A DNA stretch of 64,000 bases from Escherichia coli. Its GTDB lineage: Bacteria > Pseudomonadota > Gammaproteobacteria > Enterobacterales > Enterobacteriaceae. The stretch lies in the NCBI RefSeq assembly GCF_045037415.1, contig NZ_CP173440.1. One strand, given 5' to 3'. The stretch's first letter is position 1. The number at the start of each line of letters is the position of its first letter. The translations under genes were made by a program, and so were the position numbers. Below are positions 334-61,486 of the stretch, piece by piece. The notes under the pieces are model-generated. The model made no database searches and was not told the origin of the DNA. It saw nothing but the letters and a program-made list of their open reading frames with translations.

Positions 334-389
334 CCCAAAAGTAACTTTTGGGCCTATGTACACTCCCGCCACCCGGTAAAAGTGACTTT
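334..389. promoter_or_regulatory. two copies of the plasmid-wide palindrome AAAGTWACTTT
   Basis: 19-bp perfect palindrome CCCAAAAGTAACTTTTGGG (334-352) and AAAGTGACTTT (379-389), 57-110 nt upstream of the minus-strand start at 277. Confidence 0.6.
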
Positions 390-407
390 TTACGGCGCAA
401 ATACTGA

Positions 408-827
408 CTAAACGTGCTGGTTCTGATTAAACATGGCTACGGCCATTGGTCTGGAACCACTGGTATCATCTACCTCTACGGCAATATCTATCCAATGGTC
501 GGGGTCGGATACCCAGTCAATCAGCTCTTTAAGGGACAGGCTGTATCTGAACTTAATTTTCTTAATGCTGTCATTGCCAAACCAGTTAATTCGGTTCACA
601 TGCTGTTTGATGTAGTACACATCCCATGAGCCATGGCCCAAAAAGTCCTTACCCCACTGCCGCTTATGCTCTCGCCAGTCACAGGGCAGAACGTCTGCAC
701 GAAAAAGACTGTCTGTTATCTGATAGATATCTGAAAACCCGACCTCGCTATCGGGGATCGTTTCCAGGTACAGGTATCCGGCAACCGGATGCTTCGTGCT
801 AATGACCACGTGTTTCGAGCTCATCAT
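408..827 (-). CDS. hypothetical protein
   Basis: 139-aa ORF with no competing frame. Confidence 0.6.
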   Translation of the reverse strand: MMSSKHVVISTKHPVAGYLYLETIPDSEVGFSDIYQITDSLFRADVLPCDWREHKRQWGKDFLGHGSWDVYYIKQHVNRINWFGNDSIKKIKFRYSLSLKELIDWVSDPDHWIDIAVEVDDTSGSRPMAVAMFNQNQHV

Positions 828-1372
828 AGTTCCGTTTTCCGTATGAACAGTCCTAACGCCAATAATCCAGTTATATCAAAATTTGTTTCAGAAATTCCTG
901 AATAACAGGACAAAAAAAATCCAGAGAGGAAAGAAATGCGGGACAAAAAGGGTCTTTCAGGATCGCTTATTTTGATATCGTCTATTAACTATTCCATCCC
1001 GAGATGTTCAAATGACGCCAGTATGCAGCGCGGGAAATGTGAAAACAGAATGTGCAGCAAGAAGAAAACGACATAGAAGGAGAGGGAGGCTCATTCACAT
1101 CACTGATGACAGCTATATTAACAGCAGAATGCTTGATCAGATATCCGACGACGTGATGTATCAGGAAGCATTCAGAAAAGGAACTTAACGACGAACGTAA
1201 AAAAACACACTCCACGGCCTTAAAGTACCTTTAAGTCGGGAAAAACCAAAATTTTCTATGTTAGATTATTATCTGTTTTAGTAGGCCAGAACTAAACCAG
1301 TGCCCTGTCTGGTAAAAGGGAGTGGCGGTAGCTTCTGAAAATTCAGTTTAACTTCCAGATTATTCAAGCGGG

Positions 1373-1732
1373 ATGTATATGCATGCAACTCATCTGACGA
1401 AAAAATTTAATGTTTTGGCGGTCGTCTATTTCACAATCATTGCTTGTGGTCAGATTGTTCTGTTCCCTCATTCTCAGCCCATTTTCCTGTTCCTCGTGAC
1501 TATGGCTATGGCGGTTCGCTTATTTGCCCTGCGGCCTCAATATAAAAATTTACGATTTCTGGTTTTGTCCATCATCTCACACCACCTTGTTTTTACCATT
1601 CTTTCACTCATCCAACTCTATATCGATGCCAGGTATAGCAGGGCAAGTTTCATTGAGTATCAAATGGTTTATGCGCCTTTGCTCATCGGGATGGGATATG
1701 TGTATTTCAACGTCTGGAGAGCGCGTACCTAA
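1373..1732 (+). CDS. putative small membrane protein
   Basis: 119-aa ORF with 3-4 hydrophobic helices. Confidence 0.45.
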   Translation: MYMHATHLTKKFNVLAVVYFTIIACGQIVLFPHSQPIFLFLVTMAMAVRLFALRPQYKNLRFLVLSIISHHLVFTILSLIQLYIDARYSRASFIEYQMVYAPLLIGMGYVYFNVWRART

Positions 1733-2112
1733 CATCCTTCCGACTTCTTTGGTTAAAAGAGCCTGCATGAATTGTTCTACCCACAAAGCCATACCGCTGA
1801 CCTTTTCTTGTGAAGTGGCAACAGGTACAGGTGTCCCCGTTAAGGTGTCAGACTGTTGTACGTTACCGGGTTAATAACGAGTATCGGGAATTGACCAGCG
1901 ATACTCATTAGATAGGATTAAACATGTTGATTAACAATAAAGTTAAAAAATAAATAAAGGCAAAAAGAAAGAAGGCGTCCAAAATATTTTGGACGTGCCA
2001 TTACATCGAAAAGAAATATCCTCAACCTATTTTTATAGCCCTTTTTTGGTTACCTTGGCTTCCTTTAATAGCATATATAAAGCTATTCCCGCAATTTTCT
2101 CCTTTAATTGCA

Positions 2113-2430
2113 TTGGCGATATACGGACTTGGGATTATAACAATACTTTCTGTATGGTTCTATTTGGATTTTCCTAAAAGCTGGATTGATTCACTGGACC
2201 GTCAAATTTTGAAGTACCGGTCAGATATGTCATTCATTGATGAGCTCAAAGATGTACACACTGATGATTTTATTGAACATGGCAAGGAAATACTAACGAT
2301 TAGCGACATTCAATATTGGGCTAATGACCAAGAATGGCAACTGGATAAACTACATAGAAAATATAGTCGCGTCAAAATCAAAAAAGAGGTGGTTGTTAAC
2401 CTTAAAAGTTTTGAAAGTAAAAAGGACTGA
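2113..2430 (+). CDS. hypothetical protein with N-terminal TM helix
   Basis: 105-aa ORF; hydrophobic N-terminus, charged C-terminus. Confidence 0.45.
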   Translation: MAIYGLGIITILSVWFYLDFPKSWIDSLDRQILKYRSDMSFIDELKDVHTDDFIEHGKEILTISDIQYWANDQEWQLDKLHRKYSRVKIKKEVVVNLKSFESKKD

Positions 2431-59361: not shown

Positions 59362-59365
59362 TTTC

Positions 59366-60397
59366 ATGAGAACTTTAAACTTCAACGGTAAAATTTCGAC
59401 TCTGGAACCACTGACTGTAACAGTAAAAAATGCGGTCTCAACTTCCGGCCATCGCTTGCCTCGTAACGGTGGATTCAATGCAGCCCCGTACTTTCCAGGT
59501 ACCAGCATTCGGGGAACTCTTCGTCATGCTGCGCATAAGGTCATTGTCGATCGTGTGGGCCTTAATGCAGACGGAAAATCACCTTTCGACCTGGCAGAAC
59601 ATTTCATGCTGGCCCAGGGGGTGGATATCAATGGTGAAGCCGAAACCTTCGCGCCAGGTGAAATCAATGCTGGTGCTGAACTACGTAGCAAAAACCCGTT
59701 AATCAGCTTGTTTGGTCGTTGGGGATTAAGCGGCAAAGTTGGTATAGGGAATGCTATCCCGGATGGTGATAACCAGTGGGGGATGTTTGGTGGGGGTGCC
59801 CGCTCAATTATGTTTCAGCGTGACGAAAGTCTGATGGAGTTTCTTGAGACAGACCAGGTTGATCGTCTGGAACGCCTGCTCGAGGAACAGGCTGAGGCAA
59901 GTGTGGATATCTCTCAGATCAAAACAGAGCAGGATGCACTCAAAAAGGCGATGAAGTCGGCTGATAAAGACACCAAAGCTGAGCTTCAAATCAAAGTACG
60001 GGAGCTCGATGAAAAAATTCAGGCCCGCAAAGATCAGAAGCAGGAATCTCGCGAGTCAATTCGCCGCCCGATTGACCCGTATGAAGCGTTTATCACCGGC
60101 GCAGAACTCAGCCATCGCATGAGTATTAAAAATGCGACTGATGAGGAAGCAGGGCTTTTCATTTCTGCATTAATCCGCTTTGCAGCCGAACCACGTTTTG
60201 GCGGTCATGCGAATCATAACTGCGGTCTGGTGGAGGCTCACTGGACAGTTACGACCTGGAAGCCGGGTGAACTGGTACCAGTTACACTTGGAGAAATCGT
60301 CATCACACCGAATGGTGTTGAGATTACCGGGGACGAGTTGTTTGCTATGGTAAAGGCATTCAATGAAAATCAATCTTTTGATTTCACTGCCCGCTAA
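59366..60397 (+). CDS. csf2: type IV-A Csf2 (Cas7 backbone subunit)
   Basis: 343 aa. RAMP glycine loop FPGTSIRGTLRHAAH. Last gene before the leader. Confidence 0.8.
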   Translation: MRTLNFNGKISTLEPLTVTVKNAVSTSGHRLPRNGGFNAAPYFPGTSIRGTLRHAAHKVIVDRVGLNADGKSPFDLAEHFMLAQGVDINGEAETFAPGEINAGAELRSKNPLISLFGRWGLSGKVGIGNAIPDGDNQWGMFGGGARSIMFQRDESLMEFLETDQVDRLERLLEEQAEASVDISQIKTEQDALKKAMKSADKDTKAELQIKVRELDEKIQARKDQKQESRESIRRPIDPYEAFITGAELSHRMSIKNATDEEAGLFISALIRFAAEPRFGGHANHNCGLVEAHWTVTTWKPGELVPVTLGEIVITPNGVEITGDELFAMVKAFNENQSFDFTAR

Positions 60398-60462
60398 CTC
60401 CAAAAGCTGGTGGATTTTAGTGGCGCTATTTAATATTTTATAATCAACCGGTTATTTTTAGA
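60398..60462 (+). promoter_or_regulatory. CRISPR leader
   Basis: AT-rich 65 bp between the csf2 stop and repeat 1. The degenerate repeat is at the far end of the array. Confidence 0.6.
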
Positions 60463-61404
60463 GTATTCCCCCCGTGTGCGGGGGTTATCGGCAACCTCAA
60501 TTCCTAATGGCTGTCTAAGGAAAGTATTCCCCCCGTGTGCGGGGGTTATCGGCAGGGTTTGCCCTTTTGCACCGCGCAGCGGTCGTATTCCCCCCGAGTG
60601 CGGGGGTTATCGGAGCAACGTTTCCGGATTATATGGCTGGAACGTGTATTCCCCCCGTGTGCGGGGGTTATCGGTGGTGCTCTCAACCGTCACCCGCTGG
60701 CTGGAAGTATTCCCCCCGTGTGCGGGGGTTATCGGTGGTGTTGTCCACGGTCACCCGCTGGCTGGAAGTATTCCCCCCGCATGCGGGGGTTATCGGGCAC
60801 CCTCACGGATACCTTTTGCACAGTGTTAGTATTCCCCCCGCATGCGGGGGTTATCGCCTTAGAGAAGCAAAAACCCCACCGAGGCAGGGGTATTCCCCCC
60901 GTGTGCGGGGGTTATCGGTTACTTTTTGGCAGTTGGTAAAACACTTTTGCGTATTCCCCCCGCATGCGGGGGTTATCGGCGAAAACGGCAACCTTCATAA
61001 AAACGTCTTTTGTATTCCCCCCGTGTGCGGGGGTTATCGGCCGAGATTGAGTAAAGCAAAGTAACGGCGGTGGTATTCCCCCCGCATGCGGGGGTTATCG
61101 GCAGCGTCTGAACGGACGAAACATCCCTGTTGAGTATTCCCCCGTCTGCGGGGGTTATCGGCGAGCGCTCTCCTGGTAAATCGGTAGCTCGGAGTATTCC
61201 CCCCGCATGCGGGGGTTATCGGGCTGGATTTCCGTCAGTTGGTCAGCTGCTGCTGTATTCCCCCCGTGAGCGGGGGTTATCGGTTCCGGACTCCTGTTTC
61301 CGGCAGTGGATTAAAGTATTCCCCCCGCATGCGGGGGTTAACGGCACTACCAGATCCGAATGGACACCCGTAATGAGTATTCCCCCCGCACGCGGGGGTA
61401 TCGA
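60463..61404 (+). CRISPR. CRISPR array: 16 repeats of 29 bp (GTATTCCCCCCGTGTGCGGGGGTTATCGG) and 15 spacers of 32 bp
   Basis: Strict 61-bp period from 60463. Repeat 12 is 28 bp. Repeat 16 is degenerate (GTATTCCCCCCGCACGCGGGGGTATCGA). Confidence 0.97.
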
Positions 61405-61473
61405 CATAAAAACCGCAATGGTGGGGCTTTTGTTATGTGCCCCTACAAGCAGATGGGACTTTTTACAATCAAG

Positions 61474-61486
61474 GAAAGTTACTTTC
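61474..61486. promoter_or_regulatory. palindromic motif copy GAAAGTTACTTTC
   Basis: 69 nt past the last repeat and 233 nt upstream of the SOS box. Confidence 0.5.

Follow-up and report, generated by a model that had tools for sequence, protein, structure and literature searches.

The backbone of IncHI plasmids carries many copies of a 13-bp palindrome, R-AAAGT-N-ACTTT-Y, which has the look of a dimeric protein-binding site and is a candidate for one. The stretch analysed here (the window, 64 kb) is part of a Klebsiella pneumoniae-type IncHI1B/IncFIB (pNDM-MAR-type) megaplasmid. We propose, with a probability of about 0.5, that the palindrome is the site of an IncHI-encoded dimeric binder, and that both belong to a KorB/OB-like network. 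The best candidate for the binder is a ParB/KorB-like protein of 413 aa, which is encoded in the window. All features are listed in Table 1.

The window contains 25 exact copies of the 11-bp core AAAGTWACTTT, all at the starts listed in the first-pass annotation, while shuffled windows contain 0.05 on average (maximum 1). Chance is thus excluded, as had been claimed. If one mismatch is allowed, there are 38 matches (3.3 expected). The three copies with a central G and the 10/11 copy (TAAGTTACTTT) reported earlier are also present. The spacer between the half-sites is strictly 1 nt: the complete relative NZ_CP117741.1 has 91 such copies, but only 1, 2 and 0 with spacers of 0, 2 and 3 nt, respectively. 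Of 182 flanks, 174 have T or C as the outward base at position +/-6; beyond this position, no conserved sequence was found in these flanks. The longer palindromes quoted in the first-pass annotation do exist but are individual cases, as only +/-6 is constrained beyond the 11-mer. The supposedly wider-spaced relative at 53219-53237 exists as well but is really a 23-bp perfect palindrome, GGGTAAAGTTA-G-TAACTTTACCC.

Could the copies be what remains of a mobile, dispersed repeat (of MITE or REP type), or are they RNA hairpins or terminators? A few have longer palindromic extensions, and for those at 2466 and 338 the folding energy is -5 and -8 kcal/mol, respectively, but typical copies fold at 0 kcal/mol and have neither a G+C-rich stem nor a U tract. 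In IncHI5, the bases themselves are kept, not merely their complementarity. A longer dispersed repeat was looked for, and the palindrome is not part of one. The lack of conservation outside the motif and of a stable hairpin rules out a MITE, REP or terminator, and we regard this explanation as refuted, its likelihood being practically nil.

NZ_CP117741.1 (341 kb) has its 91 copies (0.44 expected) exclusively in the IncHI backbone, and zero copies were found in ~150 kb of resistance and virulence cargo DNA on the same plasmid. The backbone density is even (6-16 sites per 20 kb, about 1 per 2 kb). The motif had been called plasmid-wide; the window is not the whole plasmid, but the network does span the entire IncHI backbone and every IncHI subgroup examined. 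Among 83 backbone sites, 52 are intergenic or straddle a gene end, compared to 22% intergenic DNA (p = 2e-15), and motif density is six-fold higher in intergenic DNA. The other 31 are fully inside genes, in all three reading frames. Thus, the description as nearly all 5' intergenic applies to the window (23 of 28 copies; three of the others overlap stop codons and two are inside genes) but not to the backbone. The distribution of distances to the start codon peaks at 100-124 nt upstream (11 sites). By position relative to annotated genes, there are four copies upstream of the pilin operon (record positions 54173-54504), one 112 nt upstream of mobI, and others upstream of the htdA-like/entry-exclusion divergent region and of the trhR/trhY-like region. 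Three sites end 22-26 nt upstream of the -35 hexamer in a repeated promoter family with six members. Of the distances to start codons given previously, 42 nt (14795 to 14752) is correct, while others were slightly off: the gap is 11 nt rather than 8 for 2466-2488, 9 rather than 7 for 47479-47469, and 10 rather than 11 for 48285-48274. The suggestion of a simple promoter or RBS operator does not hold, given that a third of the backbone copies are intragenic, several lie on stop codons and promoter distances vary.

The motif might also act at the DNA level without being read by any plasmid regulator: it could be the site of a host factor, a target of methylation or restriction, or a signal for conjugation or replication (e.g. 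a priming site). The window codes for a type II restriction-modification pair and an orphan methyltransferase, and the motif core contains GTWAC. However, GTWAC alone is neither depleted nor enriched (654 observed, 695 expected), whereas the motif itself is enriched 200-fold; restriction targets are normally avoided, not enriched. No factor of E. coli or Klebsiella is known to have the consensus AAAGTWACTTT, and the consensus sites of SlmA (GTGAGTACTCAC) and MatP (GTGACRNYGTCAC) differ from the palindrome. Moreover, the motif occurs on the IncHI backbone alone, and cargo DNA in the same host lacks it. We consider such a signal very unlikely.

Judged from the comparison of related plasmids, the motif is under strong purifying selection. 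Positional conservation is complete for the 13 orthologous sites that can be aligned with the IncHI5 plasmid p13190-VIM: all 10 specified bases are kept in each (130/130 positions), with flanks that are 69-89% identical. An IncHI1-type plasmid has 14 copies in 41 kb and the IncHI2 plasmid R478 has 7 in 41 kb. Three more distant IncHI-like contigs (L024, L027 and L028) also carry the motif.

By its family profile, the 413-aa protein is a divergent orphan member of the ParB superfamily, as the first-pass annotation had guessed. The protein alone has no Pfam or NCBIfam match. It has 255 relatives, and HTH_ParB was detected in 35 of 50 and the KorB domain in 3 of 50. The family profile matches ParB/Spo0J/Noc structures in the PDB with E-values of 1e-17 to 1e-15 and KorB (8qa8) with 1e-5. 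The protein has the motifs FNTR and GHCRxRA and an HTH_ParB-type domain, with an HTH at about residues 172-194. Two further proteins had been named as potential HTH-type binders. The one encoded at 6143..6415 stays below the curated family cut-off, with only weak sub-threshold HTH-family matches, and that at 16814..17548 has no HTH-family match.

The densest cluster of sites on the plasmid (six in 760 bp) is located directly upstream of the 413-aa gene; from the palindrome at 31127 it is 26 nt downstream to the beginning of the -35 hexamer of the gene's promoter. IncHI1, IncHI2, IncHI3, IncHI5 and contig L024 all keep a site 101-111 nt upstream of the start, even though the ParB-like proteins are only ~36% identical. 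Members of the ParB superfamily (ParB, Noc, KorB) bind palindromes of 13-16 bp as dimers. The real ParAB pair of the plasmid has its own array (~3 kb of 60-bp repeats), so that the orphan protein is free for another target. We infer its pairing with the palindrome from proximity and family analogy.

A paralog (392 aa, 31% identical) is encoded near the tra genes outside the window. It has a sub-threshold HTH_ParB match (E 1.6e-4), and its gene has a motif site 117 nt upstream in this plasmid family. This paralog may act with the 413-aa protein or may replace it; because both co-occur wherever the motif is seen, their phyletic distribution does not tell them apart. At its N-terminus, the 413-aa protein has the motif GHCRxRA and not GERRxRA, and its Box III is divergent, which makes CTP-dependent clamping uncertain. 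No gene for a ParA or KorA-like partner adjoins the 413-aa gene. Another relative (P0063, BLAST identity ~38% to the query) is encoded on a marine contig that has neither the motif nor any repeated palindrome. The AF2 model of the 413-aa protein is unusable (pLDDT 35).

The ~90 sites mark the backbone and leave cargo DNA unmarked. They accumulate upstream of promoters, where a typical site ends 22-26 nt before a -35 hexamer and thus lies ~105 nt before the start codon; other copies are found at gene junctions, on stop codons, within genes and on either side of the RepFIB iterons. In the proposed mechanism, for which KorB of RK2 and BisD of ICEclc serve as analogues, the 413-aa protein would load at the palindromes and act on promoters at variable distance, and would regulate its own gene via the upstream six-site cluster. 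Sliding or spreading, as well as the direction of the regulatory effect, we infer. As an outcome, genes for transfer, establishment and maintenance would be co-ordinated across the plasmid.

A regulon of such breadth exists in IncHI plasmids: mutation of htdA in R27 derepresses 139 of the 181 genes expressed, 106 of them non-tra, and TrhR and TrhY jointly activate the tra operons F, H, AC and Z (PMC7366339). The palindrome might thus be the cis-element of this circuit, with TrhR/TrhY as a two-component activator that binds upstream of promoters, counteracted by HtdA, and with the palindrome at about -65 from the inferred transcription start. The breadth of the htdA regulon fits ~90 sites, our searches found no binding site for TrhR, TrhY or HtdA, the tra operons checked by position have sites upstream, and the placement at the three promoters is typical of class I activators. 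However, no DNA-binding domain can be recognised in the TrhR-like, TrhY-like or HtdA-like proteins, nor do they have relatives in the PDB. TrhY has an FlhC-like end (CxxC-N13-CxxC), yet the activator boxes of FlhDC, AcaCD and SetCD are longer than, and different from, the palindrome. Nor does an activator box account for the 31 intragenic copies, those on stop codons or the six copies clustered upstream of the ParB-like gene. We regard this assignment as possible but rather unlikely.

Alternatively, the ParB-like protein may mainly compact, position or tag the backbone, the sites being dispersed centromere-like or nucleoid-organising elements (similar to Noc-NBS, MatP-matS or the dispersed N15 centromeres) with secondary effects on transcription. 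The superfamily of the candidate binder would suit such a role, as would the third of sites that are intragenic in all reading frames, the even density in the backbone with zero copies in cargo, and the sites on both sides of the RepFIB iterons. Two features point to promoters instead: the sites are six-fold enriched in intergenic DNA, and their distances show a sharp mode ~105 nt upstream of starts. In addition, a ParAB pair with a repeat array of its own is already present on the plasmid, and the orphan gene has no adjoining ParA partner. The natural variant pKP13f lacks both the 413-aa gene and the six-site cluster but nevertheless persists, so that the protein is not essential for maintenance, a point that counts against the preferred binder too. 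We consider a mainly structural role unlikely.

For the binder-network reading that we prefer, the copies in the window are compiled in Table 1. The CDS around 57074 is annotated as a helicase C-terminal-domain protein and is read here as type IV CRISPR-Cas dinG. The copy beside the CRISPR array (61475) has a similarly placed counterpart in a Klebsiella grimontii (K. grimontii) locus (L016).

Table 1. Palindrome copies (W centre unless stated) and candidate binder gene in the window
Feature	Position	Strand	Remarks
copy, centre A	338..348	.	intergenic; upstream of PIN-domain gene, start 277 (-) 60 nt away
copy, centre G	379..389	.	101 nt upstream of PIN-domain gene start 277 (-)
copy	2466..2476	.	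upstream of HNH endonuclease ATG 2488; directly precedes Shine-Dalgarno sequence
copy, intragenic	8650..8660	.	within DNA cytosine methyltransferase CDS; record position 85595
copy	11365..11375	.	overlaps stop TAA of CDS 11369..11647 (-)
copy	12041..12051	.	overlaps stop TAA of CDS 12045..12254 (-)
10/11 copy	12759..12769	.	51 nt upstream of start 12707 (-)
copy	14795..14805	.	upstream of start 14752 (-)
copy	16677..16687	.	overlaps TAA of 16294..16683 (+); 126 nt upstream of ATG 16814
ParB-like-1, 413-aa orphan ParB-superfamily gene	29775..31016	-	best candidate binder
sigma70-like promoter TTGATG-N17-TATCCT of ParB-like gene	31071..31100	-	one of family of six
copy, first of six-copy cluster	31127..31137	.	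110 nt upstream of ParB-like ATG
copy, cluster	31339..31349	.	kept in IncHI5
copy, cluster	31393..31403	.	kept in IncHI5
copy, cluster	31429..31439	.	kept in IncHI5 except centre base
copy, cluster	31581..31591	.	kept in IncHI5; flanks 76% identical
copy, cluster	31875..31885	.	35 nt upstream of 54-aa ORF 31675..31839 (-)
copy	37265..37275	.	103 nt upstream of start 37161 (-)
copy	38666..38676	.	109 nt upstream of start 38556 (-); 22 nt upstream of -35, promoter 38614-38643
copy	39777..39787	.	20 nt past upstream gene's stop; 248 nt upstream of start 39528
copy	43469..43479	.	101 nt upstream of start 43367 (-)
copy	45234..45244	.	107 nt upstream of DUF4942 gene start 45126; 26 nt upstream of -35, promoter 45178-45207; 8 nt from near-consensus + strand promoter 45253-45280
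copy	47479..47489	.	upstream of unannotated ORF 47080..47469 (-); kept in IncHI5, flanks 71% identical
copy, centre G	48285..48295	.	upstream of ATG 48274 (-); abuts Shine-Dalgarno sequence; centre G too kept in IncHI5
copy, centre G	49579..49589	.	intergenic; kept in IncHI5, flanks 69% identical
copy beside RepFIB origin	51306..51316	.	left of iterons 51774-52048; kept in IncHI5
copy beside RepFIB origin	51477..51487	.	kept in IncHI5
copy beside RepFIB origin	51594..51604	.	
copy	52161..52171	.	between iterons and rep 3' end
copy, intragenic	57074..57084	.	record position 133894
copy beside CRISPR array	61475..61485	.	~60 nt past last of 16 repeats (60463-61412)

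The 13-bp palindrome R-AAAGT-N-ACTTT-Y is a real and strongly selected element, conserved in the IncHI subgroups examined, and its copies very probably constitute a network of protein-binding sites. The first-pass annotation had reported 25 exact copies of the core AAAGTWACTTT. A scan of the window returned the same 25, with every coordinate correct, as well as the three copies with a central G and the 10/11 copy at 12759. Chance had been excluded as their origin, and this holds, because dinucleotide-preserving shuffles contain 0.05 copies on average and never more than one. With one mismatch permitted, the window has 38 matches (3.3 expected). 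The window is the backbone of a Klebsiella pneumoniae IncHI1B/IncFIB megaplasmid (pNDM-MAR-type, MOBH, MPF_F). In PLSDB, 533 plasmids match its section 29000-34000, 365 of them with at least 99% identity. Almost the entire window is spanned by NZ_CP117741.1 (341,460 bp), which is referred to as the complete relative. When assembled from eight pieces, with 1,460 of its bases not included, it has 91 copies of AAAGTNACTTT, while 0.44 are expected.

Of these copies, 83 fit RAAAGTNACTTTY. The centre is occupied by T in 41 cases, by A in 38, by G in seven and by C in five. The half-site spacing is strict: in the complete relative, spacers of 0, 2 and 3 nt were seen once, twice and not at all. In the 182 outward flanks, constraint is limited to the first position, with T or C in 174 of them; beyond +/-6 the base frequencies are flat across all flanks, and there is no longer conserved unit. 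Such an anatomy is characteristic of a site that is read, in double-stranded DNA, by a symmetric dimer of a protein. The first-pass annotation had raised the possibility that the copies are embedded in a longer dispersed repeat (REP/MITE-like). This is rejected on account of the flat flanks and of a fold energy of 0 kcal/mol for typical copies; only a few copies with chance extensions fold. An intrinsic terminator was also rejected, since A/T-rich 5-bp arms around a 1-nt centre give no stable fold, and none of the terminator-like sites predicted in the window coincides with a palindrome copy. The window codes for a restriction-modification system (see the feature list below). Targets of such systems are depleted or neutral in the DNA of the element itself. 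The motif does not fit this pattern, with an enrichment of about 200-fold, and the shorter GTWAC is neutral (654 copies, with an expectation of 695). CTGA(Y)TGC was considered as a flanking element and dismissed, not being enriched over the 182 flanks (9.9%, with a background of 7.1%). A more widely spaced relative of the motif, proposed at 53219-53237 in the 5' portion of rep, does exist and extends to a perfect palindrome of 23 bp (GGGTAAAGTTA-G-TAACTTTACCC, window 53217-53239). It has the same half-sites, 5 nt apart instead of 1, and occurs once.

Conservation was followed through related plasmids. In the IncHI5 plasmid p13190-VIM (about 84% identical), 13 of the window sites could be aligned. 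They agree at each of their 130 specified positions, and changes are limited to the centre base (twice), while the 300-bp flanks of the same sites have 69-89% identity. Among palindromes, the motif ranks first in an IncHI1-type plasmid (14 copies within 41 kb) and in the IncHI2 plasmid R478 (seven copies within 41 kb). It is also carried by species-representative genomes with IncHI-like loci and by the more distant IncHI-like contigs L024, L027 and L028. It is absent from the one IncC locus analyzed around an orphan ParB and from a marine contig, and the TARA contigs L025 and L026, which encode distant relatives of the candidate binder, lack a repeated palindrome of any kind. An alternative protein-site pair was sought in the contigs of distant relatives and none was found. 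The narrow-alignment search for related loci returned only IncHI-like loci.

All 91 copies of the complete relative are in the IncHI backbone (transfer regions, a long run of small same-strand genes, replicons, par region and ter region), and there are none in its resistance and virulence cargo (about 150 kb). Placement statistics were computed for 83 sites and 186 annotated genes in 179 kb of backbone. The preference for intergenic DNA that the first-pass annotation had proposed to check is evident: intergenic DNA makes up only 22% of the backbone, yet 52 of the 83 sites are found there when those straddling gene ends are included, at a density of 1.31 sites per kb, compared to 0.22 per kb within genes (binomial p = 2e-15). 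The other 31 sites are fully intragenic, with all three reading frames represented. Seven of these are located at operon junctions, no more than 35 nt away from a start codon. We consider it unlikely that the role of the sites is mainly structural. Five sites straddle gene ends, and three window genes terminate with AAG-TAA within the motif. The distance to the next start codon has a sharp mode, with 11 values between 100 and 124 nt, and the copies at 2466, 47479 and 48285 abut a Shine-Dalgarno sequence. Judged by their position relative to annotated genes, four copies are upstream of the pilin operon, one is 112 nt upstream of mobI, and others are upstream of the trhR/trhY-like genes and upstream of the divergent region with the htdA-like and entry-exclusion genes. 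The iterons of the RepFIB replicon are bracketed by palindromes, three on one side (51306, 51477 and 51594) and one on the other (52161).

A repeated sigma70-like promoter sequence, aGGGGyTTGnnn-N17-TA(T/A)CCTGG, was found by hand and occurs six times on the minus strand of the window. This putative promoter family is predicted to drive the run of small minus-strand genes. The palindromes at 31127, 38666 and 45234 end 22-26 nt ahead of its -35 hexamer, which places the palindrome centre near -65. The promoters also share a G-rich upstream element and a CCTGG after the -10 hexamer, which could represent a second operator. A generic sigma70 scan of the window was uninformative (35 matches, with 34.9 expected from shuffled sequence). 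On the plus strand, a near-consensus promoter (CTGACA-16-TATAAT, 11 of 12 matches, 45253-45280) and the palindrome at 45234 are 8 nt apart. This promoter is antisense to the surrounding minus-strand genes and may give rise to an antisense or small RNA.

Coordinates of features in the window and in related DNA (L006 and L007 are loci of related DNA)
Feature	Location	Remarks
Sigma70-like promoter family	window 31071-31100, 32432-32461, 38614-38643, 39566-39595, 42994-43023, 45178-45207	near-identical sequence
Array of 60-bp repeats	L006 11900-15000 = NZ_CP117741.1 61.9-65.0 kb	immediately upstream of parA-parB
392-aa ParB-like paralogue	L006 6925-8103 = NZ_CP117741.1 56925-58103	between pilin operon and gene for Ig-like protein
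TrhY-like protein	L007 44554-45078 = NZ_CP117741.1 184554-185078	outside the window
Restriction-modification pair (type II) and orphan methylase	window	genes
RepFIB replicon	window	four iterons, ACGTACGACGGTTAATNTTTT, 51774-52048
Type IV CRISPR-Cas locus with 16-repeat array	window 54947-61412	type IV-A3-like; cas6 56217-56783; dinG 56786-58660; two more genes up to 60397; array 60463-61412, period 61 nt
Mobile-element insertions (compared to related plasmids)	window, about 3950-4730, 26700-27704, 49864-51084, 53366-54370, 62101-63588	IS1, IS4321 (two), ISCfr12, group II intron (ltrA)

The lead candidate for the binder is an orphan protein of the ParB superfamily with 413 residues (WP_004197197.1, ORF 29775..31016, minus strand). 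Directly upstream of its gene are six palindrome copies in 760 bp, the densest cluster of the plasmid. As a single sequence, the protein has no significant match in Pfam, NCBIfam or PDB; only a profile of its distant relatives gave significant matches. An exhaustive HMMER search returned 255 relatives, and among the 50 tested for domains, 35 have an HTH_ParB domain and three a KorB domain. The family profile matches structures of ParB, Spo0J and Noc with E values between 1e-17 and 1e-15 (Noc about 1e-15) and the KorB structure 8qa8 with 1e-5, which bears out the initial ParB/KorB-like assignment of this ORF. The protein has the motifs FNTR and GHCRxRA and an HTH (about residues 172-194). It also has a linker of low complexity and a C-terminal domain that is short and helical. 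The CTP-binding motifs of KorB-type regulators are GERRxRA and ENLQR; GHCRxRA retains GxxR, with no variation at G101 and R104 within the family, but Box III is divergent. An AF2 model built with eight close homologues was unusable (pLDDT 35). Homologues are encoded in 2,428 PLSDB records. Although the IncHI1 and IncHI2 orthologues are only about 36% identical to the 413-aa protein, a palindrome is found 101-111 nt upstream of the ParB-like start codon in IncHI1, IncHI2, IncHI3, IncHI5 and contig L024. This site, about 105 nt upstream of the gene, looks like a conserved autoregulatory arrangement.

The gene has neither a ParA nor a KorA among its neighbours, which are small hypothetical ORFs without a Pfam match above the curated cut-off; one of them has weak, sub-threshold P-loop matches only. 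The ParA/ParB pair of the plasmid is 40 kb away and adjoins its own repeat array: immediately upstream of parA-parB, outside the window, there are about 3 kb of tandem repeats of about 60 bp (core TTGTTCGCAGTCGGATACC), probably the true centromere of the plasmid partition system. We therefore consider the canonical plasmid ParB an unlikely binder and reject the palindromes as parS sites of a ParABS centromere. The latter is further disfavoured by pKP13f (NZ_CP004000.1), a natural IncHI1B/IncFIB variant which persists without the 413-aa gene and the six-palindrome cluster. This plasmid keeps the remaining backbone and its palindromes.

A second orphan ParB-like protein is encoded next to the tra genes, outside the window (392 aa, WP_004196657.1). 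Due to this paralogue, IncHI plasmids carry three ParB-superfamily genes. It is 31% identical to the 413-aa protein, and its HTH_ParB match is sub-threshold. A palindrome is located 117 nt upstream of its gene in the pNDM-MAR-type family; there is no such palindrome in the IncHI2 locus examined. Alternatively, the palindrome might be read by TrhR/TrhY, from the TrhR/TrhY-HtdA circuit described in the IncHI plasmid R27. An R27 htdA mutant has 139 of 181 expressed genes derepressed (PMC7366339), a breadth that would call for a cis-element of this kind, and by position, sites are upstream of operons matching the F, H, AC and Z operons that TrhR/TrhY activates. However, no DNA-binding domain was detected in the TrhR-, TrhY- and HtdA-like proteins, and TrhY ends in an FlhC-like zinc ribbon, which suggests an activator of the FlhDC or AcaCD type and thus a different kind of box. 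We regard TrhR/TrhY as an unlikely reader of the palindrome. The C-terminal end of the TrhY-like protein is CxxC-N13-CxxC, with FlhC-like spacing, which hints that TrhR/TrhY is an activator of the FlhDC, AcaCD or SetCD type. As both the paralogue and the TrhR/TrhY-HtdA circuit are present, the probability has to be divided. We assign about 0.5 to the prediction that one or the other ParB-like paralogue reads the palindrome, and smaller shares to TrhR/TrhY and to the structural role, with what is left going to other explanations.

Among known systems, the closest to a ParB-like reader of the palindrome is KorB with its operator OB on RK2. OB is a 13-bp 6-1-6 palindrome with the core TTTAGCGGCTAAA, and KorB is a CTP-dependent sliding clamp that acts up to 1.5 kb away, with KorA locking it at promoters (PMC11790492). 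Both systems have 13-bp 6-1-6 palindromes, dispersed in many copies over a conjugative plasmid at positions close to promoters, upstream of them and distant from them, and an HTH protein of the ParB superfamily encoded on the same plasmid. They differ in the site sequence (TTTAGCSGCTAAA for OB, RAAAGTNACTTTY for IncHI) and in the number of sites, which is 12 on RK2 and about 90 on an IncHI plasmid, where one third are intragenic. RK2 has a ParA (IncC) and the clamp-locking co-repressor KorA as partners in the same operon, while the IncHI gene has no adjacent ParA or KorA-like gene. The arginine patch is GHCRxRA rather than GERRxRA, and the profile search put the IncHI protein at a greater distance from KorB than from chromosomal ParB/Noc. 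By analogy, the IncHI network would work like KorB/OB, but because of its site sequence, its about 90 sites, the intragenic copies, the missing ParA/KorA partners and the divergent nucleotide-binding motif, we do not assign it to that family. BisD of ICEclc is a ParB-like CTP clamp that loads at the parS-like bisS and slides to distant transfer-gene promoters, which it activates (bioRxiv 10.1101/2024.09.16.613209). It, too, is a ParB-like orphan encoded on a conjugative element, and its GxxR is kept in the IncHI protein as G101-x-x-R104. BisD differs in having just two bisS sites and, at its C-terminus, an activator domain that acts together with BisC; the IncHI protein has its linker and short helical domain. 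Noc of Bacillus is an orphan ParB paralogue without ParA, with tens of scattered palindromic sites (NBS), many of them intragenic, and its structures are matched by the IncHI family profile. Noc-NBS, MatP-matS and SlmA-SBS act, however, on chromosomes and cell division rather than on plasmid gene expression, lack a promoter-proximal mode and have other site sequences. HerB (YfjB), a ParB-like protein from the leading region of F-like plasmids, has 652 aa with the extra domains D3 and D4 and a demonstrated CTP-binding domain; it binds the host chromosome, and ChIP-seq revealed neither a consensus sequence nor an inverted repeat (PMC13370423). It resembles the IncHI protein as a plasmid-encoded orphan ParB-like protein with an HTH, among small establishment-type genes. 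The IncHI plasmid itself is, in contrast, marked by a sharp palindrome.

Most IncHI genes are co-regulated (PMC7366339), and a literature search by sequence string and keyword returned no published cis-element for the IncHI regulon. It also returned no description of the motif, but older subscription R27/R478 papers were outside its scope, so that a prior mention is possible. From the single, sharply defined, family-wide 13-mer, binding sites (about 90) and promoter positions can now be predicted, and two candidates for the protein can be named. Should the binder prove to be the ParB-like protein, the paradigm of clamp regulators on mobile elements, set by KorB and BisD, would extend to a plasmid family that dominates clinically and to a site network much denser than theirs. 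IncHI plasmids are vehicles of multidrug resistance in typhoid Salmonella, carry mcr-9 and NDM genes in Enterobacterales and also include the hybrid resistance-virulence plasmids of Klebsiella. One could speculate further, at rather long odds, that the divergent orphan ParB-like protein coats the whole IncHI backbone, sparing the cargo, from loading sites that number about 90 or one in every 2 kb, as a plasmid-specific "chromatin" layer that sets a plasmid-wide, temperature-dependent on/off state for the expression of IncHI genes. This would be the missing DNA-level part of the HtdA-TrhR/TrhY-H-NS circuit, coupled to replication (because sites flank the iterons) and to the type IV CRISPR array.

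Two palindromes are associated with the CRISPR-Cas locus of the window, one within dinG and another about 60 nt past the last repeat. In a Klebsiella grimontii locus, a copy has a similar position relative to the CRISPR array.
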